Positions 1 through 11,997 of a stretch of 64,000 nt of DNA are shown in pieces; position 1 is the first letter of the stretch; every line of letters starts with the position of its first letter. Source of the DNA: Sphingomonadales bacterium (lineage in GTDB: Bacteria > Pseudomonadota > Alphaproteobacteria > Sphingomonadales > Sphingomonadaceae); the NCBI GenBank assembly GCA_038211965.1, contig JBBQVB010000001.1:29361-93360 (forward strand), written 5' to 3'. The notes beneath the pieces were generated by a model. The model saw nothing but the letters and a program-made list of their open reading frames with translations, was not told the origin of the DNA and did not search any database. The position numbers were made by a program, and so were the translations under genes.

Positions 1-26
1 GGCAACCCCCCGAGGACTGCCTGACG

Positions 27-2876
27 GTGCCGCTGCCGCTCGCGTCGGTGCTCGGCCCGCCCGATCCGGGTTACCCGCTGCGCGAGCGCCGTCGGGCCGA
101 AGTCGATACGCGCCACGCCAGCCTCGACAACCCGCAAGCCATCGCCGCGCACGACACGCTGCGCCTGCCGCCGCGCGAGTCGGCGTTCGTCGTCGGGCAG
201 GATGGGCAACTCTGGCCGGGGACGGCGATCAGCGCCTGCCGCTCGAACAACGGCGGTCGCCTCGATGTCGCCCCGCGCGCCTATTTCGGGCGCGCGCTCG
301 AAGGCGACACCGCCGTCCTGCCGACGCGCGCGCGGCCGCGCTGGCAGCGTCTGCGGCTGCCCGGCGCGGGGCGCGAACTCCTTGCCGCGCCGGCTTATGC
401 GATCGAGGAAGTGCGCAGCCAGAGCGACGGCATCGACAAGACGCTGGTCGCCTTCCCCGCCATCGTCGGGGAGCGCGTCCCCGGCCGCAGCCGCGAGCCC
501 GATGCCGTGCTGGTCAGCGCCGGGGTGCTGCGCAGCCTGCTGGTGCCGGTGCTGCCGCCGACCGAGCGCTTCATGGTCGTCGATCTCGGCGATCCCGGCC
601 TCGAAGTGCTCTTCCACTCCGACCGCCAGCGCGTCCACTTCGAACATGCCGCCCGCGAACTCAAATCGCCCAAGCTCGCCGCGATCCTGACGCGCCTGCG
701 CGGCCCGAAGGCAGCCGACGACGGCCCGCCGGCGCTGACCTCGACCTACGACGGTGCCCGCCAGCATTTCGGGCTGGCGCGGCTGCCGTTCACCAACTGG
801 GCGATCCTCGCGTGGCATTCGCACGACAGCGCCGACGCGGTGCCGGCGCAGGTATTGCTCGCGACGATGATGAGCTTCTCGGCGCTCGTCGTCGCGGTGT
901 GGGGCGTGCCCGCGCTGGTGCTCGCGGCGCTCGGCAAGGCGCGCTGGGGGTGGCTGTGGCCCGATGCGCGCATGCGGGGGGCGTACAACCGCCTGGGAGG
1001 CGCGCTGGCGCTGACGGCGGCATTGGGGGTGCTGTTGCTGCTGCTGTGGCCTGCCGGGCCGCTGTGGGCCGCGCTGGCGTGCTGGGCGGGGGGTCTGGCG
1101 AGTGGCATCGTCGTGCTGCGCGGGCCAAAGGGCGCGGGTGGACCGCTGCGTCCCGATACCGCGCGCGCCTATCGCAACGCCGTCGTCGCCGCACTGGTGA
1201 CGATGGTCGCGGTGCCGATGATCGCCGTCCACGCCGACGCGGCGCGCTTCGGGCGGCGCAGCGTCGACACCGATGCGCGCATCGGCCTCGATGCCGGGCT
1301 GGCGGCGCGCACGGCGGCAACGGCGGCGATCTCGAACGTCTATTTCTCCGACCTGCGCGCCGCGCGCCGCCGCGTCCTCGCGCCGACCGATCTGACCGGG
1401 GTCGCGGCGGGGTGCTGGCGACCGCTGCCCGATGCCGAGCGCGACACCGGACTGGCGCAGCGGCTGTTCAGGGGCCTGTATCACGGTCCCGCGCCCGGCG
1501 CATCGACGGTGACCCCGGCGCTCGCGGCGCTGGCGTGTCCCGGCACGTCGCTCGCGCTCGGCAGCCTGGCGACCTTCGCCGAGCCGAAGATCGAATGGGA
1601 GTCGGGGTCGCTGGCGCGCGTCGTGTGGATCGTCGTCGTCGTCGGCCTCGGTCTCGGGTTGCTGGGTGCGGCACTGGCCGTGATCCTCGAGCGCCTGTTC
1701 GGCCTCGCGACGCCGCTCGAAGCCGTGACCTACCCGCCGCTGGCGCTGTCGGACGATTTCGCCGCGCTCGTGCTACCGCCCAAGGTGATGATCGTCCGTC
1801 CGCCGCTGGGCCTCAGGAACCAGCTGTTCGACCACGGCCACCGCATCGACCTGTCCGACGAGACGCTGACGCCGATCGCCGGGCCGCAGGTGACGCCCGC
1901 CTGGGCACCGCCGCGCCACTACATCCTCTACAATCTCGAGCTGACGCTGCGCGAGCCCGAGCGGCGGCGCGCGGCGCTGCGGTACATCGAGAAGCTCGTC
2001 GAGAAGCCGGGGGTGCGCGACGGCACGACGACCCTCGTGCTCGTCGCCGAACTGACCCCGCTCGAGCGCCTGCTGCAGGCCTATGAGCACGAGAAGATCG
2101 CCGCGCAGACCGACGAGGGCCGCGACCTCGAAGCGATCCGCCGCCAGCGCGAGGACATCCGCTGGTCGAAACTGCTCGAGGATTTCCAGACCTTCATCTT
2201 CGGCTCGGTGGACAAGCTGATCCGCGCGCCGCGCACGGGAGAAACCGCGGTCGAGACGGCGGTGATCGGCGAGCTGGCGGGGCTTCCCGAACACGTCATC
2301 GCGACGCTGCTGCCGGCGGGAACGCCGATTCCGGTGTCGATGTCCCTGCGCACCACCGCCGCTTATGACGCGCTGTACCGCGACCATGTGCTCGGCTTCG
2401 CGCGCGACCTGCATGCCGCCAGCCCACAGGCGGCGATCGATTTCATCGGGCTGATGCTGATCGAACATTATCAGCAGCTGTGGTCGGCCTCGTCGCGCGC
2501 CGAGCAACTTGTGCTGCACAACCTGAGCATGCGGCGCATCCCGAGCATCGCGGCGCGCGACGCGCTGAAGTCGCTGATCCGGCGCGGGCTGGTTGCCTAC
2601 GATCCCGTGCCGCGCCTGTTCAACGCGAGCTTCGCGGCGTTCGTCCAGCACGCCGAGCGGCCCCAGACGTTGCAGCGCTGGAAGGCCGATGCGCCCAAGG
2701 GTGGCTGGCGTTTCGCGGTCTGGCCGCTGCTCATCATCTTGCCGCTCGGGCTGCTGCTCCTCGGCGGCGCGATCCTCGACTCCGGGCAGCCGCTGGTTGC
2801 GCTGCTGCCGCTGCTCGTTGCCACCGGCCCGGCTTTGTTGCAGGCTCTGGGTGTCTTCCGAAAGGCTACGACGTGA
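27..2876 (+). CDS. Large multi-pass membrane protein with a Cache-like N-terminal sensor region; function unknown. First gene of a 3-gene cassette and probably 5'-partial.
   Basis: The ORF starts with GTG at 27, but the frame stays open to the window edge. Residues ~75-260 resemble a Cache fold (DVAPRAYFGRALEGD, YAIEEVRSQSDGIDKTLVAFP, VLFHSD). There are about five hydrophobic helices between aa ~274 and ~555 and two more at aa ~894-945. The soluble region at aa ~560-890 ends in a wHTH-like stretch (LSMRRIPSIAARDALKSLIRRGLV). No GxxxxGK[ST] motif was seen. Confidence 0.6.
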   Translation: MPLPLASVLGPPDPGYPLRERRRAEVDTRHASLDNPQAIAAHDTLRLPPRESAFVVGQDGQLWPGTAISACRSNNGGRLDVAPRAYFGRALEGDTAVLPTRARPRWQRLRLPGAGRELLAAPAYAIEEVRSQSDGIDKTLVAFPAIVGERVPGRSREPDAVLVSAGVLRSLLVPVLPPTERFMVVDLGDPGLEVLFHSDRQRVHFEHAARELKSPKLAAILTRLRGPKAADDGPPALTSTYDGARQHFGLARLPFTNWAILAWHSHDSADAVPAQVLLATMMSFSALVVAVWGVPALVLAALGKARWGWLWPDARMRGAYNRLGGALALTAALGVLLLLLWPAGPLWAALACWAGGLASGIVVLRGPKGAGGPLRPDTARAYRNAVVAALVTMVAVPMIAVHADAARFGRRSVDTDARIGLDAGLAARTAATAAISNVYFSDLRAARRRVLAPTDLTGVAAGCWRPLPDAERDTGLAQRLFRGLYHGPAPGASTVTPALAALACPGTSLALGSLATFAEPKIEWESGSLARVVWIVVVVGLGLGLLGAALAVILERLFGLATPLEAVTYPPLALSDDFAALVLPPKVMIVRPPLGLRNQLFDHGHRIDLSDETLTPIAGPQVTPAWAPPRHYILYNLELTLREPERRRAALRYIEKLVEKPGVRDGTTTLVLVAELTPLERLLQAYEHEKIAAQTDEGRDLEAIRRQREDIRWSKLLEDFQTFIFGSVDKLIRAPRTGETAVETAVIGELAGLPEHVIATLLPAGTPIPVSMSLRTTAAYDALYRDHVLGFARDLHAASPQAAIDFIGLMLIEHYQQLWSASSRAEQLVLHNLSMRRIPSIAARDALKSLIRRGLVAYDPVPRLFNASFAAFVQHAERPQTLQRWKADAPKGGWRFAVWPLLIILPLGLLLLGGAILDSGQPLVALLPLLVATGPALLQALGVFRKATT

Positions 2877-2886
2877 GGCAGCGCTC

Positions 2887-5800
2887 ATGATGAGTCTCGA
2901 CGCCGCGAAGCCCGTCGACGGCCTGCTGGTCAAGCTGCGCCGCGCCGACGCTGCCGGGTTCGCCGTGGCCAACCGGATGGCGATGGGCGGCAGCGCGACG
3001 CCCGAGGTCATCCTGACCGTCCCCGCCGCCGCCGCTGCCGAGCGCGGTTTCGCCGATCACCCGAACGACGCCGTGTGGGCGCGGATGGCGAGTGGGGCCA
3101 ACGCGTGGGACGACGCGCACCGCATCATGCGGCAGGGCTTCGCCGCGGCGAGCGGGGTCATCGCCGCCGAGCCCGATCTCGGGCAGGTCTGGCGGAACGG
3201 CGAGGCAGATGCGCCGGGGCTGGGCGTGGCAGCCGACGACCGCTGCTCGCTCCGGCTCCAAACCGACGCGGGCGGGCGCGCCATCGGCCCCGGCTCGGCA
3301 TGGCACCGCGGCGACGCCTTCTCGGGACTGGCGAGCGCGGCGGCGCAGGTCGGCGACGCGGCACAGCGCGGGGTGCGGATCGCGCATCTCGATACCGGCT
3401 ACGACCCCGCGCACAGCGCGCGCCCGGCGCACCTGCTGACCGGGCGCGAGGCGAATTTCGTGACGGGCGAGGGCGCCGCCAACTCCGCTGCCGACGTGAC
3501 GCCGACGGGCGGCATCCCCTTCACCCGCGCGCGCGGCCACGGCACCGGCACCTTGTCGATCCTCGCCAGCCCGCAGTTCGGCGGCGCGCCGGGGGCGGAG
3601 ATCGTCGCCGTCCGCATCGCCGACGGCGTCGTGCGCTTCTCGACCTCGACGATGGTGCAAGGCATCGAGCACGCGCTGGCGAACGGCGCGCAGGTGCTGT
3701 CGATGAGCATGGGCGGGTACGCCGGCGGCGCGCTCGCCGATGCGGTCAACAAGGCCTACGAGGCCGGACTGACGATGGTCACGGCAGCGGGCAACAACTT
3801 TGCCGGGCTGCCGATCCGCTCGGTGGTCTATCCGGCGCGGATGCGGCGCGTCATCGCCGCGACGGGCACGATGGCCGACGGGCGGCCCTATTTCGATCTC
3901 GTCGCGCCGACGATGCAGGGCTGCTGGGGTCCAGACCTCAAGATGGCGACGGCGCTCGCGGGTTTCTCGCCGAACATCCCCTGGGCGGCGTTCAAGTGCG
4001 GCGATGTTGTCCACGAAGACGGGCAGGGCACCAGCGCCGCGACGCCGCAGGTCGCCGCGGCGGCCGCGCTGTGGATCGCGCTGCACCAGGGCGATCCCGT
4101 TTATCAGAGCTATTCGCAGGGTTGGATGCGTGTCGAGGCGGTGCGCCGCGCACTGTTCGCCGCAGCACGCAAGACGACTGCCAAGCTCGATGCGGCGGGG
4201 GTGCTTCATTTTCTCGGCACCGGCGCGCTCGATGCGCTGGCGGCGCTCGCGGTCGGGCCCGCCGCTGCGTCGGGTCTGCGCGCGGAGCCGCCCGCCAGCG
4301 CGGCATGGGCATGGGTCAAGCTGCTGTCGGGCGAAGGCGTCGGCTTCGCGCTTGCCAGCGCGCCGCGCGCCAATGCGCTCGGTCTCGAACTGATGCAGCT
4401 GGCGCAGCGCACGCCCGAGATCGAGGCGGCGCTGCTGGGCGGCGGCGGCGACCCCGACGGCGCGCTGCCCGAGGCGAACCGCAAGGCATTCTTCGAAGCC
4501 GTCCTCGATAGCGGCGCGGCCTCGCAGTTGCTGACCACCGCGCTGACGCGGAGCCTCGGGCTGCGCGACGCGGCCCCGCCGCCGGCACCGCCGCCGCTGC
4601 CCGGCACCGCGCCGTTGCCGGGGCAGGTCCGCATGGCGCGCCGCGACCCCGTCCCCGCGCAGCGCCGCCTGCGCGTCTTTGCGCTCGACCCGAGCCTCGG
4701 GGCGTCGCTCGATACCGTCGCGATCGGCCTCGCCACGGTGAACATTCCCTACGAGACCGGCGAAGACGGCAAGTCGATCCTGCGCCCCGGCCCAGTCGGC
4801 GAATATCTCGAGGTCGTCGATGTCGATCCGGCGTCGGACCGCGCCTACGATCCCGTCGATCTCGACCACCCGCACCTGCTGATCTCCGACGGGCTCGAGC
4901 CGTCGGAGGGCAACCCGCGCTTCCACCAGCAGATGGTCTACGCCATCGGCATGAAGACCATCGGCCACTTCGAGGCCGCGCTCGGGCGCAAGGCGCTGTG
5001 GGCGCCGCGCCGCTACCGCCGGGGCATCGCGTCGCGCTTCGAATATGTCCAGCGCCTGCGCATCTACCCGCACGCGCTGCGCGCCCAGAATGCCTATTAC
5101 AGCCCATCCAAGGTCGCGCTGCTGTTCGGCTATTTCCCCGCCGCGTCGGCGCGCACCGACGCGACGGTGCGCGGCTCGATGGTGTTCTCATGCCTCAGCG
5201 CCGACATCGTCGCGCACGAGATGACCCACGCGCTGCTGGACGGCGTCCACCGCCACTACCAGGAGGCGTCGAACCCCGACGTCGGGGCGTTCCACGAAGG
5301 TTTCGCCGACATCGTCGCGCTGTTCCAGCATTTCACCTACGGCGACATCGTCAGCGCCGAGATCGCCCGCGCGCGCGGCGAGATCGGCGCAGCGCGGCTG
5401 CTGTCTGGCCTCGCGCGCCAGTTCGGCGAGGGGGCGGGCAAGGCGGGGCCGCTCAGGGACTATATCGACCCGGCAACCGGCACGCTCGACTATAGCGCGA
5501 CCACCGAGGTCCACAGCCGGGGGTCGATCCTCGTCTTCGCGATCTACGAAGCCTTCGTCGCCATCGTCGAGCGTCGCACCGGCGACCTCATCCGTCTCGC
5601 CACCGGCGGCACCGGCGTGCTGCCGGCGGGCGACCTCCATCCCGGCCTCGTCACGCGGCTGACGCGCGAGACTTGCAAGGCCGCGTCGCAGGTCCTGCGG
5701 ATCTGCATCCGCGCCATCGATTATTGCCCGCCCAACGACATCACTTTCGGCGAGTATCTGCGCGCGCTGCTGACCGCCGATGTCGACCAGGTGCCCGACG

Positions 5801-6528
5801 ACCGGCTCGGCTACCGCACCGCGCTGCTGCAGGCGTTCCGCAAGCACGACCTGCTGCCGCCGCGCCTGCGTACCGTTTCGATCGAGTCGCTGGTCTGGCG
5901 GCACCCGATCGATCCCCACCCGCCATGGTTTGCCGACGCGGTGCGCGACTTCGCGATCGACTGGGCGAATAATTCCGACCGCTGGACGTCGTTCAAGCTC
6001 GTCGAGCAGCGCCGCTTCGACCTGCAGCTGCGGCTGAAGCAGGTGTTCGCCGACGACCCCGGCGTCGCCGCGAGCTTCGGGCTGCAGCACGGCCTGCCGC
6101 GCTACGGCGAGGACGGCATCGCGATCCCCGGCGAGACCGAAACCTGCTTCAGCGTCCACAGCCTGCGCCGCGTGCGTCGAGTCCGTCCCGACGGCGAGGT
6201 GGCGAACCAGATCGTCGCAGTGATCGCGCAGCGCCGCGCCGAACCCGTCGATCCGGCAGTCCCGATCGACAAGGACGACCCCAACAGCTTCTTCTGGTTC
6301 CGCGGCGGCGCGACGCTGATCATCGATCCCGCCGTGTCGGGCAGCTACCCGCCGCGTGCCGAAATCCGCTATTGCGTCGTCAAGCACATGCTCAGCACCG
6401 ACCGGCTGGCGCGCCAGCGCGCGATGGCGGGCGGCCCGGCGACCGGCCTGCGCGCGCAATATTTCGACACCCGCGCGCTCGCCCGCCGCGAGCCCTTCGC
6501 GATGCTCCACGCGGAGGACCCGGCATGA
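2887..6528 (+). CDS. Fusion protein: subtilisin-like S8 serine peptidase domain plus thermolysin-like (HEXXH...E) zinc metallopeptidase domain. No signal peptide.
   Basis: ATG at 2887 with GAGG 8 nt upstream, 10 nt after the previous stop. S8 motifs: HLDTGYD (Asp codon 3391-3393), GHGTGTLS (His 3538-3540), GTSAATPQVAA (Ser 4033-4035). A Pro-rich linker (APPPAPPPLPGTAPLPG) follows. The metallopeptidase motifs are HEMTH (5215-5229) and HEGFAD (Glu 5296-5298). Confidence 0.8.
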   Translation: MMSLDAAKPVDGLLVKLRRADAAGFAVANRMAMGGSATPEVILTVPAAAAAERGFADHPNDAVWARMASGANAWDDAHRIMRQGFAAASGVIAAEPDLGQVWRNGEADAPGLGVAADDRCSLRLQTDAGGRAIGPGSAWHRGDAFSGLASAAAQVGDAAQRGVRIAHLDTGYDPAHSARPAHLLTGREANFVTGEGAANSAADVTPTGGIPFTRARGHGTGTLSILASPQFGGAPGAEIVAVRIADGVVRFSTSTMVQGIEHALANGAQVLSMSMGGYAGGALADAVNKAYEAGLTMVTAAGNNFAGLPIRSVVYPARMRRVIAATGTMADGRPYFDLVAPTMQGCWGPDLKMATALAGFSPNIPWAAFKCGDVVHEDGQGTSAATPQVAAAAALWIALHQGDPVYQSYSQGWMRVEAVRRALFAAARKTTAKLDAAGVLHFLGTGALDALAALAVGPAAASGLRAEPPASAAWAWVKLLSGEGVGFALASAPRANALGLELMQLAQRTPEIEAALLGGGGDPDGALPEANRKAFFEAVLDSGAASQLLTTALTRSLGLRDAAPPPAPPPLPGTAPLPGQVRMARRDPVPAQRRLRVFALDPSLGASLDTVAIGLATVNIPYETGEDGKSILRPGPVGEYLEVVDVDPASDRAYDPVDLDHPHLLISDGLEPSEGNPRFHQQMVYAIGMKTIGHFEAALGRKALWAPRRYRRGIASRFEYVQRLRIYPHALRAQNAYYSPSKVALLFGYFPAASARTDATVRGSMVFSCLSADIVAHEMTHALLDGVHRHYQEASNPDVGAFHEGFADIVALFQHFTYGDIVSAEIARARGEIGAARLLSGLARQFGEGAGKAGPLRDYIDPATGTLDYSATTEVHSRGSILVFAIYEAFVAIVERRTGDLIRLATGGTGVLPAGDLHPGLVTRLTRETCKAASQVLRICIRAIDYCPPNDITFGEYLRALLTADVDQVPDDRLGYRTALLQAFRKHDLLPPRLRTVSIESLVWRHPIDPHPPWFADAVRDFAIDWANNSDRWTSFKLVEQRRFDLQLRLKQVFADDPGVAASFGLQHGLPRYGEDGIAIPGETETCFSVHSLRRVRRVRPDGEVANQIVAVIAQRRAEPVDPAVPIDKDDPNSFFWFRGGATLIIDPAVSGSYPPRAEIRYCVVKHMLSTDRLARQRAMAGGPATGLRAQYFDTRALARREPFAMLHAEDPA

Positions 6529-7916
6529 CACACGTCAGCGCGCGCCTCTATTGCCACGGCCTCGGCGACTGTTCGCTGCTCGGGGTCGCAAAACCCGACG
6601 GCGGGACCTTCTGGATCCTCATCGATTGCGGCATCCACACCTCGGCGAAGGGCGGACCGGCGATGATCGACCGCGTCGTCGCCGATATCGCGACCCATGT
6701 CTCGGTCGGGCTGGCCCCCGGTGTCCGCCCGCGCCTCGATGTCGTCGTCGCGACGCACGAGCATTGGGACCATATCTCGGGCTTCACCACGGCGGCAGAG
6801 GGCTTCGCAAAGTTCGATGTCGGCGCGGTGTGGCTGGCGTGGACCGAGAATCCCATCGACCCGCAAGCGCAGGCGCTCGACAAGTTCAAGGGGGAGGGGC
6901 TGGCGGCGGTCGCGCAGGCTGCCGACCGGCTGCGCGCCGACCCCCGCTCCCAGGCGCTCGCCGACGGCCTCGAGGCCCTGCTCGGCTTCAACTTCGGTGT
7001 CCGGGGCGAACGCTCGCGCGACGCGCGCAATGCCGTCGTCGCGCTCGCGCCGCTGAATTTCCACTATCTCGAACCCGGCAGCGTCGCGCCGCTGCCCCCC
7101 GAGCTCGGCGTTACCGCCTATGTGCTGGGACCGCCGCGCGATGCCGCGCTGCTCGGCATCAAGGACAGCGTCAGCGACACCTACGGCTTCGGGCTGAGTC
7201 TCAACAACAGCTTCGCGCTGGCCGACGGCGACATGGGCGTCGATGACGACCCCGGTGCGCCGTTCGACGAGACCGAGGGTGTCGCGCTGTCGGCGCTGGG
7301 TAACGCACCGGCCAAAGTCGGCAGCGTCGCGGCGTTCGTCCGCGATCACTATAGCGGTCGCACGCGCCCCGACATGCTGCCGCCGATCAAGGAGGACGAC
7401 CCCGACAAGCCGACGCGCGACCAGGCATGGCGGCGCATCGACAGCGACTGGCTGGGGGCGTCGGCCGAACTGGCGCTGCAACTCGACGCGCGGACCAACA
7501 ACACCAGCCTCGTGCTGGCGTTCGCGCTAGCACCGCCGCCGGTGCCGCCCGCTGGCGGGACCGGCGACGTGCTGCTGTTCGCCGCCGACGCGCAGGTCGG
7601 CAACTGGCGCAGCTGGGCCAAGGTAGTGTTCGCCGACGGCACCACCGGCCCCGACCTCGTCCGCCGCACGCGCTTCTACAAGGTCGGCCACCACGGCAGC
7701 GCCAACGCGACCCTGAAGCCCGGCGGCCTCGAAGCGATGGTCCACCCGGCACTCGAAGCTTTCATCCCGACCGACGAGGCGATGGCCAAGCGCGTCGGCT
7801 GGGGCGCGATCCCCGAACCCGCGCTGCTCAAGCGGCTCGGCGAGAAGGCGAGCGGTCGGGTGGTGCGCTCGGATGACGTGGGGGGCGTGCTCTTCGTCGA
7901 TAGGGAGTTCACCTAA
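6525..7916 (+). CDS. Metallo-beta-lactamase-fold hydrolase, ComEC/Rec2-like subtype (putative nuclease/hydrolase).
   Basis: The ATG at 6525 overlaps the upstream TGA (ATGA). Motifs: ILIDCG, the THEHWDH metal motif (His 6756, His 6762, Asp 6768, His 6771) and the late motif YKVGHHGS (7689-7700). No signal peptide. Confidence 0.75.
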   Translation: MTHVSARLYCHGLGDCSLLGVAKPDGGTFWILIDCGIHTSAKGGPAMIDRVVADIATHVSVGLAPGVRPRLDVVVATHEHWDHISGFTTAAEGFAKFDVGAVWLAWTENPIDPQAQALDKFKGEGLAAVAQAADRLRADPRSQALADGLEALLGFNFGVRGERSRDARNAVVALAPLNFHYLEPGSVAPLPPELGVTAYVLGPPRDAALLGIKDSVSDTYGFGLSLNNSFALADGDMGVDDDPGAPFDETEGVALSALGNAPAKVGSVAAFVRDHYSGRTRPDMLPPIKEDDPDKPTRDQAWRRIDSDWLGASAELALQLDARTNNTSLVLAFALAPPPVPPAGGTGDVLLFAADAQVGNWRSWAKVVFADGTTGPDLVRRTRFYKVGHHGSANATLKPGGLEAMVHPALEAFIPTDEAMAKRVGWGAIPEPALLKRLGEKASGRVVRSDDVGGVLFVDREFT

Positions 7917-7918
7917 CT

Positions 7919-7960
7919 CTCTTCCCCCTCCCCGCGCAGCGGAGTGGGGGGAGGGGAGGA
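7919..7960. repeat. REP-like C-run/G-run hairpin between convergent genes; likely a bidirectional terminator.
   Basis: CCCCTCCCC (7925-7933) pairs with GGGGAGGGG (7948-7956) around a 14-nt GC loop. It sits in the 48-nt gap between the MBL gene stop and the cysS stop. A related copy lies at 29581-29625. Confidence 0.55.
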
Positions 7961-7964
7961 ATGA

Positions 7965-9284
7965 TCAGGCCCGCCGCCAGCTCGTGCCCTGCGGCCCGTC
8001 CTCGAGCACTATCCCCTGCGCCGCGAGGTCGTCGCGTATCCGATCGGATTCGGCAAAATCCTTGCGCGCGCGGGCGGCGGTGCGGGCGCCGACGAGGTCG
8101 TCGATCCCTGCGTCCGGCGCCGCTCGCGTCGGTTCGAGCAACCCCAGCATCGCCAGCGCCGCGCGCATGCCGCCGATATCGCCGAGACGCGACAGGCGCG
8201 CGATAGCGGCGACGACGGCGGGCGTGTTGAGATCGTCCGCCAGCGCGGCGATGACGCGCTCCGGCACCGCCGCCTCGTCGTCCTCCGAGCGGCGCACGAA
8301 GCCCTGCCAGCGGTCGAGCGTCGCCTTGGTCTGTTCGAGGAGCGTTTCCGTCCACTCCAGCGGCTGGCGGTAATGCGCGCTGAGCAGCGCCAGCCGTAGG
8401 ACTTCCCCCGACCACCCCGCCGCCAGCAAATCGCCGACCAGCGCAACATTCCCCAGCGACTTCGACATCTTCTCGGTCCCCATGCTGAGGAAGCCGTTGT
8501 GCATCCAGACCTGCGCGAGCGGTGCGCCGTGGTTGGCGCAGGCCGATTGCGCGAGTTCGTTCTCGTGGTGGGGGAAGATCAGGTCGAGCCCGCCGCCGTG
8601 GATGTCGATGGTTTCCCCCAGCACGGCGCGGATCATCGCCGAGCACTCGATATGCCACCCCGGTCGTCCGCGCCCCCACGGGGATTCCCACCCCGGCTGG
8701 TCGTCGGCACTCGGCTTCCACAGCACGAAATCGGCGGCACCGCGCTTGTACGGCGCAACCTCGACGCGCGCGCCAGCGATCATCTCGTCGAGGCGACGGC
8801 CCGACAGCCTGCCGTACTCGGGAAAGGCCGCGACATCGAACAGCACATGGCCCTGCGCCGCATAGGCGACGCCGCGCGCGATCAGCTCGCCGATCATCGC
8901 GACCATGCCGTCCGCGCCCTCGACGAACGCGGTGGCGTGGGGTTCGATGTCGGGGGCCTCGACGCCGAGTGCTGCCATATCGGCGCGGTAGTGGTCGGCG
9001 TAGCGCGCGGTGACCTCGCCGATCGGCACGCCCTCGGCCTCGGCCTTGGCGATGATCTTGTCGTCGATGTCGGTGATGTTGCGCGCGTAGACTACCTGGC
9101 GCTCGGGGTAGGTGTGGCGCAGCAGGCGGCGCAGCACATCGAACACCACGGCGGGGCGGGCGTTGCCGATGTGCGCGCGATTATAGACCGTCGGGCCGCA
9201 GACATACATCGTCACGCGGCCGGGCTCGCGCGGCGTGAAGTCCTCCTTGCGGCGGGTCAGCGTGTTGTAGAGGCGTAGGCTCAC
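7965..9284 (-). CDS. cysS: Cysteine--tRNA ligase.
   Basis: [19 protein letters not shown] (HIGH-type motif) and KMSKSLGN. I chose the GTG start at 9284, which overlaps the cvpA stop (GTGA). The longer ORF N-terminus looks spurious. Confidence 0.9.
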
Positions 9285-9877
9285 GTCGCCGGCTTCTCGC
9301 GCGCCGCCTCGAGCAGGCGGTCGAAGGCGCTGCGCTGTCTCGGAGCGTCCGCGTCGGGCTTCGCGGGAACACCCTTGGGGTGCCGCCGCGTCTCGACGAA
9401 ATCGACCATCGCCTTGCTCGTCGCCTCGACGAGCGGCGCGGTGCGCGCGGCGCGCAGCCATTCGGGACGCGGATTGGCGGGGTCGAGGACGTCGAACACC
9501 ATGCTAGCGAGGAGAAACAGTACCGCCGCGCCGAGCAGCCCCTTGAACGCCCCGAAGCCGAAGCCGAGCAGGCGGTCGAGCGGCCCGACGATCGAGTTGC
9601 GCGTCCGCGCGCCGAGCGCCCCCGCGACGCCCTTGAACACCACGAAGGTCACCGCGAAGATCAGCACGAAGGCGAGGATCGACCCGCCGCTCTCGGTACC
9701 CGTCAGCCTGGTCGCGAGCAGCTTACCCGCCGGGTAGAAGAAGCGCACCGCAAAGATCGCCGCGACCCACGCGAGCAGCGACAGCACCTCGGTGACGAAG
9801 CCTCGCGCCAGGCCGGCCAGCGAGCCGAAGCCGATCAGCAGCAGGACGACGATGTCGATGGCGGTGAGGGCGGTCAT
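9281..9877 (-). CDS. cvpA: CvpA-family membrane protein (colicin V production protein family).
   Basis: [42 protein letters not shown] is a typical CvpA N-terminus. The protein has four hydrophobic helices. ATG at 9877. Confidence 0.7.
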
Positions 9878-9923
9878 TGCGGCGGGTGTAGGGGAGGCGG
9901 CGGGGGCGGGGCAAGGGCGGGGG

Positions 9924-11308
9924 TCAGGACCGGGATTTGCGCGAGCCCCCGCCCCCCAGGTAATCCACCAGCGCCGCGACCGTCCGGAAGCCCTGCACGC
10001 GCACCCCACCCCCTACCGTCGAGGCGGGGGCGAGCGCGCTGCCGAATCCCAGCTTCGCCGCCTCCTTGAGGCGCAGGCCCGCGTGGCCGACGGCACGCAC
10101 CTCGCCCGACAGCGCGATCTCGCCGAACGCGATGGTGTCGGCGGGGACGACGGCCTCGGTCAGCGCGGAAATCAAAGCCGCTGCGACGGCGAGGTCGGCG
10201 GCGGGGTCCTGGACGCGCAGGCCGCCCGCGACGTTGAGATAGACCTCGCACGCCGAAAAGCTCAGCCCGCAGCGCGCTTCGAGGACCGCGAGGATCATCG
10301 CCAGTCGCCCGGCGTCCCAGCCGACGACCGCGCGCCGTGGCGTCGCGCCGCTCGCCAGCCGCACGACGAGCGCCTGGATTTCGCACAGCACGGGGCGCGT
10401 GCCTTCGAGTGCCGGGAAGACGACGGTGCCGACGACGGGCCGGTCGCGGTCGGTGAGGAACAGGCTCGACGGGTTGGCAACTTCGGCCAGCCCCTCGGTG
10501 CCCATCGCGAAGACGCCGATCTCGTCGGTGCCGCCGAAGCGGTTCTTGACCGCCCTGAGGATGCGGTACTGGTGGCTGCGCTCGCCTTCGAAATACAGCA
10601 CGGTGTCGACCATGTGCTCGAGGACGCGCGGCCCCGCGATCTGGCCGTCCTTGGTGACGTGGCCGACCAGCACCACCGCGGCACCGCTCGTCTTGGCATA
10701 GCGGATCAGCTCCTGCGCGGCGGCGCGGACCTGGCTGATGGTCCCGGGTGCGCCTTCGAGCGTGTCCGAGTGCATCGTCTGGATCGAGTCGATGATCAGC
10801 AGCGCGGGCGGCGGACCGGCGCTCAGCGTCGTCAGGATATCGCGCACCGAAGTCGCGGCGGCGAGCTGCACGGGAGCCTTCGCCAGCCCGAGCCGCCGCG
10901 CGCGCAGGCGGACCTGATCCGACGCTTCCTCGCCGGTAACATAGGCGACGCGGTGGCCGTCCTGCGCCATGCGCCCCGCGGCCTGCAGCAGCAGCGTCGA
11001 CTTGCCGATGCCGGGGTCGCCGCCGATCAGCACCGCGCTCGCCGCGACCAGCCCGCCGCCCAATGCCCGGTCAAGCTCGGCGATGCCCGTCGACAGCCGC
11101 GCCGGGATCGCCACGTCGTCGTCGAGCCCCGCCATCGCGAGGCGCGTGCCGCCGCCGCTCAGCGAGTGCTTCGCGCTGAACGGCGTGACGACCGCGCTCG
11201 CTTCCTGCTGGATCGTGTTCCACTGGCCGCAGTCGCCGCACTGCCCCGCCCAGCGTGCCGCGACCGAGCCGCAGCCCTGGCAGACATAGCGGACGGCAGC
11301 GCGGGCCA
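9924..11308 (-). CDS. radA: DNA repair protein RadA/Sms.
   Basis: Zinc ribbon YVCQGCGSVAARWAGQCGDCGQWNT, Walker A GGDPGIGKSTLLLQ and a Lon-like C-terminus. GTG at 11308 is preceded by GGAAGGAAA. Confidence 0.9.
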
Positions 11309-11352
11309 CGGGTTTCCTTCCAGGAACGGAAGGCGAACATAGCGAGGTGCCG

Positions 11353-11997
11353 TCAGGTCGGCAAGCCCGTGTCGACATTTCTGCCCAAGCGAAATAGCCG
11401 CACCAGCAGCGGGCTGGCCATCAGTGGCACGAGCCCCGCCAGCGGTATCCACATCGCCGCCGCGAAGGCGAGGCTCGCGATGACGATCGGCGACCACGCG
11501 CGGCGCACCCACAGGCGGCGTTCGGCGACCCCCACCGCCGGATCGAGCCGCGTGCCCTGTGTCAGCGTCAGCGCGAGGCGCAGATTGAACAGCCCCGATA
11601 TCGCCAGCCACACCGCATAAAAGCCGACGCCCGTGCGGCTGCTGGCAAAATTGCTGATGATCGCCGTTGGGAACGGCATGAACGCGATGGTCAGCAGGAA
11701 CAGCAGATTATGCCAAACCAGCTTCTCATCGGCGCGCAGCAGATAGCCGAACGAACGGTGATGGACGATCCAGAAACGGCCGATGACAAAGAAGCTGACG
11801 AGGAAACCGATATACTGCGGGATGTTCTCAAGCAGTGCTTGGTTGAGTTGTGTGCTCGTGTAGCCGTTGGGAAATCGCGGCACGTGGATTTCGATAACGA
11901 GCAGGGTGATGGCGATCGCAAAGATTGCATCGCTGAAAAACACCATGCGGTCGATCTGGCGCCGGTCGTGCTCTTGGGCGGTTTCGCGAGCAGTCAT
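11353..11997 (-). CDS. TMEM175/DUF1211-family membrane protein (putative K+ channel).
   Basis: RMVFFSDAIFAIAITLLVIEI is the signature N-terminal helix. The protein is multi-pass and hydrophobic. Confidence 0.65.
   Translation of the reverse strand: MTARETAQEHDRRQIDRMVFFSDAIFAIAITLLVIEIHVPRFPNGYTSTQLNQALLENIPQYIGFLVSFFVIGRFWIVHHRSFGYLLRADEKLVWHNLLFLLTIAFMPFPTAIISNFASSRTGVGFYAVWLAISGLFNLRLALTLTQGTRLDPAVGVAERRLWVRRAWSPIVIASLAFAAAMWIPLAGLVPLMASPLLVRLFRLGRNVDTGLPT

Follow-up and report, generated by a model that had tools for sequence, protein, structure and literature searches.

A double protease and an adjoining ComEC-type hydrolase in a Sphingomonadales genome: a candidate protease-gated pro-nuclease module

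Why would the reading frame of a nuclease-like hydrolase overlap that of a cytoplasmic protein in which two protease active sites are complete? This question is raised by the left end of a 64,000-nucleotide stretch of a Sphingomonadales bacterium (contig JBBQVB010000001.1; hereafter “the window”), where three open reading frames (ORFs) follow one another on the + strand: gene 1 (27..2876), gene 2 (2887..6528, 1213 residues) and gene 3 (6525..7916, 463 residues). Gene 2 combines a subtilase (S8) with a thermolysin-like zinc protease, and gene 3 is a ComEC-type hydrolase of the metallo-β-lactamase (MBL) fold. An earlier note, made from the sequence, took all three genes together for a candidate conflict or signalling system. 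We found that genes 2 and 3, not the trio, are the conserved unit, and we propose, with a probability of about one half, that they constitute a translationally coupled protease/gated pro-nuclease module acting by abortive infection.

The ComEC-like MBLs of Hachiman, AVAST, Lamassu, variants of the defence reverse transcriptases (DRT) and the new caspase-nuclease system canu are pro-nucleases: two insertions that are absent from ComEC block the active site, a trypsin-like or caspase partner cuts them, and the cleavage releases an indiscriminate DNase, leading to abortive infection (Tuck et al., Science 2025, PMC12799240; Huang et al., bioRxiv 10.1101/2025.09.03.673762). Proof of this proteolytic activation dates from 2025 and is limited to trypsin-like and caspase-like proteases that are attached to known sensors. 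The present locus suggests that there is a third branch, far larger and so far unannotated, with a zinc metalloprotease as the activator, often fused to a subtilase, and with an exchangeable third enzyme. If this is correct, a new protease class would be added to bacterial immunity, in a self-contained two-gene module in which some part of the protease protein must do the sensing. A name would become available for the thousands of proteins that annotation pipelines currently call “S8 family serine peptidase”, “hypothetical protein” or “MBL fold metallo-hydrolase”, and two proteases in one chain would provide a test case of a cascade versus an AND gate.

The gene 2-gene 3 pair and its double protease

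Genes 1-3 are real genes rather than chance ORFs of GC-rich DNA (the GC content is about 70-73%), since database relatives number 1509 for gene 2, more than 6000 for gene 3 and nine for gene 1. The best 120 relatives of gene 2 are all full length, and full-length relatives are encoded in at least 595 GTDB species genomes, patchily distributed over many phyla. The closest relatives of the whole locus belong to an uncultured Sphingomonadaceae metagenome-assembled genome (MAG; 91% identity in gene 2) and to Glacieibacterium frigidum (68%).

How constant is the arrangement? Among 85 loci, tblastn places gene 3 directly 3′ of gene 2 in 62, and a hidden Markov model (HMM) search of complete ORFs does so in 60; five of the 85 loci are truncated contigs, which are among those without gene 3. 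The two genes usually overlap by 4-8 nt, and nearly all loci have an overlap or a gap of at most 13 nt. In the window, the stop and start codons overlap as ATGA at 6525-6528, with GGAGG at 6513-6517, and the stop codon of gene 1 (2874-2876) is separated by 10 nt from the ATG of gene 2 at 2887, with GAGG at 2875-2878. The earlier note had read these co-directional, tightly spaced junctions correctly. Of the three-gene synteny on which its reading was staked, the part concerning genes 2 and 3 holds (together in at least 60 of 85 loci), but gene 1 accompanies them in only 2 of 85. The conserved unit is the gene 2-gene 3 pair.

The first protease of gene 2 is a subtilase. Residues 161-446 match Pfam Peptidase_S8, the sole Pfam family detected in gene 2, with E 4.3e-25 and 89 bits (cut-off 21.8), and the domain matches subtilisin BPN′ in the Protein Data Bank (PDB) with E 2.6e-13. 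The catalytic residues Asp169, His218 and Ser383 are invariant in all 86 aligned sequences, and the oxyanion residue Asn303 is kept in 84; this set spans Proteobacteria, Acidobacteriota, Gemmatimonadota, Chloroflexota, Deinococcota and Verrucomicrobiota.

The second protease is thermolysin-like. No sequence model in the Pfam and PDB profile searches exceeds the threshold over the C-terminal 740 residues: Pfam Peptidase_M4 (PF01447) reaches 12.5 bits versus a cut-off of 22.4 (E 0.21), and the profile match to PDB thermolysin has E 1.5. The M4-like assignment rests on an AlphaFold2 (AF2) model and Foldseek. The model of residues 472-1213 has a predicted local distance difference test (pLDDT) score of 82.6, and Foldseek aligns it with vibriolysin MCP-02 (3nqz_B; E 7.7e-5, target TM-score (TMt) 0.60, probability 1.0) and thermolysin (5fxn; E 1.9e-3, probability 1.0), with no other match. 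The motif residues His777-Glu778-x-x-His781, Glu804, Asp808 and His876 are invariant in 86/86 sequences, and Glu804 and Asp808 lie in “HEGFAD”, comparable to “NEAISD” of thermolysin. The second protease is thus M4-like by fold and motif, not by an M4 family sequence model.

The remaining parts of gene 2 surround these two centres. Residues 1-160 have no Pfam match and no hydrophobic segment, and could be a pro-domain. The linker between the two halves is poorly modelled at residues 90-112 of the modelled fragment (pLDDT <50), and a stand-alone homologue starts at residue 590, just beyond it. The C-terminal domain is rich in β-strands (fragment residues 618-695, pLDDT about 90) and has no detectable relative; it is a candidate for a regulatory or sensing part.

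Neither gene 2 nor gene 3 has a hydrophobic N-terminus, a signal peptide or a transmembrane (TM) segment, and the Pfam scan found no FTP/PepSY or M4 propeptide domain in gene 2. The description of gene 2 in the earlier note, an intracellular protein in which both protease active sites are complete, is thereby confirmed, and neither a signal peptide nor a Pfam propeptide marks it as the secreted nutritional protease that the note had named as the finding that would overturn its reading. Gene 2 shares with thermolysin and vibriolysin (MEROPS M4) the fold, the HExxH motif, the downstream glutamate ligand and the conserved aspartate and histidine. In contrast to these enzymes, it lacks the signal peptide and the FTP/PepSY propeptide, is cytoplasmic and fused to S8, and carries the extra C-terminal β domain. 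A role as a maturation protease for ribosomally synthesised and post-translationally modified peptides or for quinohemoproteins was considered and rejected: the NCBIfam matches to QhpE and PatA are weak and fall well short of the cut-offs, and the vicinity has no gene for a precursor or a radical-SAM enzyme.

Gene 3 and the known gated pro-nucleases

What kind of hydrolase accompanies the double protease? The Pfam MBL matches of gene 3 are weak, and its metal-binding motifs, His78-x-His80-x-Asp82-His83, Asp355 and His389-His390-Gly-Ser, are all invariant. The PDB entry closest to its AF2 model (pLDDT 80) in the Foldseek search is, by a clear margin, the nuclease domain of Moorella glycerini ComEC (9ic4; E 1e-8, TMt 0.67), followed by N-acyl-homoserine lactone lactonases and the phosphorylcholine esterase Pce (the latter at E≤0.001). 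The ComEC-like HHGS type that the earlier note had assigned to gene 3 is thereby borne out. ComEC and Pce are also the structural neighbours reported for the trypsin-MBL nucleases (bioRxiv 10.1101/2025.09.03.673762). Gene 3 resembles the C-terminal nuclease domain of ComEC/Rec2 (9ic4; TIGR00361) in structure and in the metal-binding motifs, including HHGS, and differs in lacking the competence channel and the OB domain, in being soluble and paired with a protease, and in its approximately 185 extra residues. Consistently, gene 3 has no match to TIGR00361, and a relative scores 19 bits versus a cut-off of 190.

The sequence likenesses of gene 3 point to defence MBLs. Its sole PADLOC match below E 0.01 is the MBL-type LmuA model (LmuA-MBL, 8e-7), and its sole NCBIfam match is the “6A-MBL” MBL protein (5e-6, far below the cut-off). 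Plasmid-borne relatives match LmuA-MBL at 1e-11 to 9e-14, and one relative matches NCBIfam Avs1a at 8e-11, with a score far below the cut-off; LmuA-MBL, RTasMBL, Avs1a and 6A-MBL recur among the weak MBL matches of the relatives. In hhalign, the family profile of gene 3 aligns with CanC at 94.5% probability and with HamM at 80%, both alignments being confined to the N-terminal 80-100 residues. A direct BLASTP comparison of gene 3 with HamM is uninformative (E 0.12).

The extra residues of gene 3 are confined to two places. The span from His83 to His389 measures 306 residues, as compared to about 122 in ComEC 9ic4, 231 in HamM and 210 in CanC, and the approximately 185 residues in excess of 9ic4 fall in two insertions. 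Both insertions map to the sites of the HamM/CanC gating loops, as anchored by the motifs “VW..W”, “vLGP”, “N.SS”, “GDa” and “HHGS”, and the second occupies the topological site of HamM loop 2 (PMC12799240). The first insertion contains a conserved “LLGF” at residues 152-155, with Phe155 at least 90% conserved, which aligns with the mapped HamM cut “LI|GY”, although this could be fortuitous. The second has a pLDDT of 46-69, falling below 50 at residues 303-316. Its conserved “PF” was considered as a cleavage site and set aside: it aligns with “QPF” of HamM, 17 residues past the mapped cut, and is more likely to be structural.

How close is the pair to the characterised modules? The closest known logic is that of the trypsin-MBL and caspase-MBL (canu) pro-nuclease modules, neither of which the earlier note had named. 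The trypsin-MBL modules (HamMAB, Avs1a/Avs1b, Avs2, Lamassu and DRT) share with the present pair a ComEC-like MBL, two insertions at the same sites between the HxHxDH-type motif and HHGS, an operonic partner protease, and an HMM likeness that is weak but consistent; the abortive-infection logic of our pair would be a further shared trait. They differ in that the protease is trypsin-like there and a thermolysin-fold enzyme fused to a subtilase here, that the MBL is encoded upstream there and downstream here, and that a HamB, STAND or LmuB-type sensor is attached there and none here. The insertions are about twice as long in gene 3. In canu (CanABC, PMC12799240), a stand-alone protease gene is followed by a gated MBL nuclease gene, with variable accessory genes, and CanC is the best profile match of gene 3 (over the N-terminal 80 residues). 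Unlike our pair, which contains no caspase fold, canu relies on a caspase/MALT1-like enzyme that carries Ig-like or TPR parts, and on CanB as a partner.

Subtilases have been linked to these nucleases in one further place. Tuck et al. name “subtilase” among the operonic protease families, in the legend of Fig. S2 only (PMC12799240). That clade shares with our pair an operonic subtilase and a ComEC-like MBL nuclease, and differs in that no thermolysin-like domain is mentioned there; it may correspond to the gene 2-gene 3 family or to another, such as the S8/MBL-like/ThiF set described below. Beyond this legend, the literature searched describes no subtilase, thermolysin or patatin partner with an MBL. 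A likeness of logic only is offered by the fungal HET-Q2/HET-Q1 pair, in which, according to PMC8851545, the subtilisin-family (S8) protease HET-Q2 activates a cell-death executor, the gasdermin HET-Q1, by cleavage; this pair is eukaryotic, and its executor is a pore-former, not a nuclease.

No model in Pfam, NCBIfam 20.0 or PADLOC-DB 2.0 names or covers the system, in agreement with the earlier note, which had not recognised the combination as a named one. The trypsin-MBL and caspase-MBL modules already follow this logic; the libraries and literature searched contain no description of the thermolysin-fold (often S8-fused) protease, of the self-contained two-gene form or of the exchangeable third enzyme. 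The earlier note had also pointed to IetAS, which Gao and colleagues are said to have described in 2020 as a defence pair with an S8 protease. Both loci hold an S8-family protease in a (candidate) defence operon, but the analogy goes no further: no PADLOC model, any IetS model among them, matches gene 2 at E≤0.1, an ATPase gene of the IetA type was not seen beside the pair, and the partner is an MBL.

Exchangeable partners, genomic setting and competing explanations

Is the subtilase essential to the pairing? A nucleotide search of plasmids matched only the metalloprotease half of gene 2, and the core occurs without S8 on plasmids of Rhizobium, Agrobacterium, Bradyrhizobium, Deinococcus and Hymenobacter. 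On pRle248a of R. leguminosarum, the order is patatin, a 629-residue protein and a 527-residue MBL; the 629-residue protein is 44% identical to residues 590-1208 of gene 2 (E 5e-162), and the MBL aligns with gene 3 from end to end, through the insertions, at 35% identity. An exhaustive phmmer search with the metalloprotease half retrieved 3710 representative clusters (1015 with E≤1e-30), and their lengths are bimodally distributed: about 620-750 residues for stand-alone and about 1100-1350 residues for S8-fused proteins. The rarer fusions of the M4-like half are to TPR-S, Amidase_2 and GDPD. A gene 3-type MBL lies directly 3′ in 8/8 loci with a stand-alone M4-like protein, and the stand-alone proteins match no PADLOC or NCBIfam model. 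The deeper conserved core is therefore the thermolysin-like protein and the MBL.

The third position, which S8 occupies in the window, is variable. The pair is found with patatin in R. rhizogenes and A. tumefaciens as on pRle248a, with a phospholipase D-like (PLD-like) gene on a Bradyrhizobium plasmid (where the protease is annotated “peptidase M4”), with a peptidoglycan-binding M15 peptidase and patatin in R. phaseoli, with patatin and an integrase on a Deinococcus plasmid, and with DUF2235 on a Hymenobacter plasmid; a more distant pair accompanies an S1/P1 nuclease on pRL1 of R. leguminosarum. The occupants of this slot in relatives thus comprise patatin, PLD, S1/P1 nuclease, a lipase-like DUF2235 and a cell-wall hydrolase, or the fused GDPD, Amidase_2 and TPR-S.

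The DUF2235 gene lies directly 5′ of the pair on pCMU01 (locus L096, 5615-6835) and on the Hymenobacter plasmid (L089, 6522-7565), and also at the edge of the pRL1 locus (L094, 1-509); this gene, too, may fill the variable slot. On the plasmid of Hymenobacter sp. DG01, the M4-like/MBL genes adjoin a separate set (L089, 1-5837) that consists of an S8 peptidase, a 394-residue protein matched weakly by the gene 3 HMM (3.6e-9) and an adenylyltransferase of the ThiF family; ThiF recurs on the Deinococcus plasmid (L092, 13953-15932). This set may be the “subtilase” clade of Fig. S2 in PMC12799240, or another candidate system.

From the domain identities, the catalytic conservation, the synteny, the insertion positions and the context of the sister loci, we infer the cleavage, its substrate, the DNase activity, the trigger and the phenotype as follows. 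By analogy with the gated pro-nucleases, the gene 3 nuclease would be kept inactive by the two insertions flanking its active site. Upon an infection or stress cue, one of the protease centres of gene 2 would cut the insertions. The cutter is most likely the thermolysin-like half, because this MBL is paired with that half in every architecture. The freed gene 3 would then degrade DNA, and the cell would die or arrest before the phage cycle is completed. Since it occupies the variable slot, the S8 half probably serves as a further executioner or as an amplifier protease, and it would probably be licensed by the same event. The ComEC fold, the homology to pro-nucleases, the insertion sites, the invariant catalytic residues, the coupling of the two genes and the defence context all argue for such a module, and exchangeable partners are typical of conflict systems.

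A broader version may be entertained tentatively, as a possibility that we rate well short of even: the family could be an “executioner cascade”, in which the thermolysin-like initiator would license several zymogens at once. These would be the ComEC-type DNase together with, depending on the locus, the subtilase, phospholipases (patatin, PLD, DUF2235 and GDPD), the S1/P1 nuclease or peptidoglycan hydrolases, so that the DNA, protein, membrane and wall of the infected cell would be dismantled, comparable to the action of caspases in apoptosis. In the Sphingomonadales clade, the rare ten-TM gene 1 would add sensing or killing at the membrane. To our knowledge, a thermolysin-like protease class has not so far been reported in prokaryotic immunity.

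The same exchangeability could be read with the roles reversed, the M4-like protein and the MBL forming a sensing and activating core (with the MBL, for example, processing a nucleic-acid or nucleotide cue) and the variable enzyme, here S8, acting as the killer. A position at which enzymes are swapped is normally that of the effector; enzymes of classic effector types fill the variable slot, the 8/8 stand-alone loci all keep the M4-like protein together with the MBL, and the S8 triad is invariant. We nevertheless consider this arrangement rather doubtful: the nearest characterised relatives of the MBL are effector DNases (PMC12799240; bioRxiv 10.1101/2025.09.03.673762), insertions located where gating loops occur are more in keeping with a zymogen than with a sensor, and about 20 S8-M4 loci have no MBL, hence the MBL is not an obligatory core.

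The list of partners also recalls an arsenal for interbacterial competition, in which the lipases, PLD, nucleases, peptidoglycan hydrolases and proteases would act as toxins on neighbouring cells to which they are delivered, and the thermolysin-like protein would be a processing protease. Patatin, PLD, the DUF2235/Tle1-like protein, M15 with its peptidoglycan-binding part, Amidase_2 and the S1/P1 nuclease do resemble antibacterial effector classes. However, no secretion-system genes, no PAAR/VgrG/Rhs-type delivery domains and no adjacent small immunity genes were seen in the inspected loci, and genes 2 and 3 lack export signals, which makes this explanation highly improbable.

In what genomic company do the protease/pro-nuclease candidates occur? 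The pRle248a trio has a CBASS cyclase operon and Hachiman as its flanking neighbours; the R. rhizogenes trio lies beside CBASS and a Septu-like PtuAB pair, the A. tumefaciens trio beside Hachiman and a restriction enzyme, and the pRL1 pair beside a Hachiman-like DUF1837 gene. The S8-fused pair on Methylorubrum pCMU01 is located between the DUF2235 gene and two SIR2 genes with IS5 (L096, 12480-19511). The sister plasmid loci are thus surrounded by CBASS, Hachiman, Septu-like, SIR2, restriction enzyme, integrase and insertion sequence elements. On chromosomes, we surveyed 126 immediate neighbours in 33 diverse loci with the S8-fused form: Wadjet JetB/JetA adjoin the pair in Azorhizobium (L007, 7566-9717), and PifA adjoins it in a deltaproteobacterial MAG (L063, 4822-7065). 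The SMC-like neighbour in L046, which matches mad3 and LmuB, is probably a housekeeping Smc and was not counted as a defence gene. The defence-island signal is strong for the plasmid-borne and stand-alone forms and weak for the chromosomal S8-fused form. The conflict-system reading of the earlier note is backed by the kinship of the MBL to gated defence pro-nucleases and by these sister loci in plasmid defence islands.

S8 and M4 are classically families of nutritional exoproteases, and genes 2 and 3 could form an accessory operon of intracellular or exported hydrolases outside immunity, serving housekeeping or nutrition (protein and DNA turnover in starvation, or scavenging), with gene 1 as its membrane partner or exporter. 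Most S8-fused loci do lie among metabolic and transport genes, and the neighbours in the window are housekeeping genes. Set against this are the intracellular character of both proteins, which carry no signal peptide or TM segment and, in Pfam, no M4 propeptide or PepSY; the patchy distribution over many phyla; the position of sister loci, on conjugative plasmids, within islands of CBASS, Hachiman, Septu and SIR2 genes; and the relationship of the MBL to defence pro-nucleases. We regard such an operon as unlikely.

Several observations weigh against the protease/gated pro-nuclease module itself. About 20 of the 80 loci with enough flanking sequence, mostly from Acidobacteriota and Gemmatimonadota, are without this MBL, so the S8-M4 protein can work without gene 3. 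The likeness of gene 3 to HamM and CanC is limited to the N-terminal approximately 100 residues and is far below the NCBIfam cut-offs, and parts of its insertions are predicted to be helical, not disordered. A Pce-like phosphodiesterase chemistry on lipids or teichoic acids is also possible for gene 3. No separate sensor domain was identified in the pair. Finally, a clear defence gene lies within two genes in only 2 of the 33 chromosomal S8-fused loci, whose neighbours are mostly metabolic, and the pair in the window itself sits beside cysS, cvpA and radA.

The loci without a gene 3-type MBL have other neighbours: in one an unrelated MBL, in another a 1044-residue patatin, and in several a GMC oxidoreductase. 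The GMC oxidoreductase recurs beside MBL-less S8-M4 genes of Pyrinomonadaceae, 5′ in L043, L048, L059, L065 and L077 and 3′ in L071, with a protein of about 850 residues without a Pfam domain upstream of it in most of these loci. It is also found beside the PLD/M4-like/MBL trio of the Bradyrhizobium plasmid (L093, 3373-5280).

A phage origin of the pair was rejected, as only 2 of 50,697 phage records match, one of them a 9.5-kb metagenomic fragment. This record (MT836994.1, “Bacteriophage sp.”, from a human faecal metagenome) contains at 3768-5880 an M4-like gene (42% identity) and a partial gene 3-like MBL, and is either a misassigned bacterial fragment or a rare copy borne by a mobile element.

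Gene 1 and the boundaries of the locus

Does gene 1 belong to the system? Its frame has no in-frame stop upstream of position 27 and stays open to the window edge, and its full-length relatives measure 1342-1375 residues (1375 in L006). Therefore, about 423 codons lie to the left of the window and position 27 is not the real start, which agrees with the earlier note in placing the left boundary outside. A Kyte-Doolittle analysis predicts about ten TM segments and three large soluble regions, with large extracytoplasmic loops between TM segments. Only nine homologues were found among 5.8 billion proteins, none with a Pfam domain. The Cache-like sensor that the earlier note saw in this protein found no backing, as gene 1 matches no Pfam, NCBIfam or PADLOC family at E≤0.1 and a full-length relative matches no PDB sequence at E≤1; nor did any search that was run support the proposed winged helix-turn-helix region.

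An obligate three-gene system, with gene 1 as a Cache-type membrane sensor controlling genes 2 and 3, could account for the tight junction with gene 2 (the 10-nt gap here and a 4-nt overlap in the relatives L001, from G. frigidum, and L087) and for the extracytoplasmic loops. It is difficult to reconcile with the absence of gene 1 from 83 of the 85 loci, its two occurrences belonging to one small Sphingomonadales clade, with its nine database homologues and its lack of a Cache or any other domain match. Moreover, effector-like enzymes hold the position of gene 1 elsewhere, and its only distant relative occurs without the pair: this protein (29% identity, 1251 residues; L086, 10001-13756) follows a Y_Y_Y/HisKA_3 histidine kinase and is followed by several small genes without a Pfam domain, and L086 contains no protease or MBL gene. 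We consider the obligate trio quite improbable. Gene 1 is rather a clade-specific predicted membrane protein, added upstream of the pair, and could be a sensor or a membrane effector.

The features of the locus are collected in Table 1. To the right, a hairpin separates gene 3 from the convergent cysS (7965..9461, - strand). The earlier note had both elements right, but its description of the hairpin as resembling a repetitive extragenic palindromic (REP) element is not supported and was rejected: the inverted repeat (9 nt at 100% or 12 nt at 83%) has an arm that is single copy within the window. Because the hairpin occurs once there, it is probably a bidirectional terminator rather than a dispersed REP element.

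Table 1. Features of the three-gene locus, in window coordinates.
Feature	Position	Strand	Description and basis
Gene 1, 3′ part	3..2876	+	949 of about 1372 codons; predicted protein of about ten TM segments with large loop domains
Gene 1/gene 2 junction	2875..2889	+	GAGG overlapping the gene 1 stop, 8-nt spacer, gene 2 ATG; direct sequence reading
Gene 2 N-terminal region, residues 1-160	2887..3366	+	Ahead of S8; conserved W/H/D positions in the alignment
Gene 2 S8 (subtilase) domain, residues 161-446	3367..4224	+	Pfam PF00082
Gene 2 helical segment and proline-rich linker, residues 447-589	4225..4653	+	Joins the two protease halves
Gene 2 thermolysin-like (M4-fold) zinc protease, residues about 590-1060	4654..6066	+	Foldseek and motifs
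Gene 2 C-terminal β-rich domain and tail, residues about 1061-1213	6067..6528	+	Kept in stand-alone homologues
Gene 3, ComEC-type MBL-fold hydrolase, predicted pro-nuclease, 463 residues	6525..7916	+	Pfam Lactamase_B, Foldseek
Gene 3 insertion 1, residues about 108-195	6846..7109	+	Between the “VWLAW” strand and “YVLGPP”; pLDDT 54-70
Gene 3 insertion 2, residues about 207-323	7143..7493	+	Conserved P246-F247 and W302-R-R-I-D
Hairpin, GC-rich	7917-7958		Between convergent gene 3 and cysS; arms CCCCTCCCC/GGGGAGGGG

Beyond the hairpin, the interval 7965-11378 contains cysS, a CvpA/colicin V-family membrane protein gene and radA. The cassette lies in a housekeeping neighbourhood here, as this order is the same in G. 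frigidum (L001). No tRNA or tmRNA genes and no Rfam families at the gathering score were found anywhere in the window.

An exact-sequence look-up of genes 1 and 2 gave no match, and the context to the left of the window is therefore deduced from the relatives L006, L001 and L087. A gene for a protein of 498-503 residues precedes gene 1, after a GST gene, in two of them (L001, 4153-5664; L087, 8202-9698). The contig annotations give it no Pfam domain, and the L001 copy has no NCBIfam match. This gene may be part of the clade-specific cassette, just left of the window.

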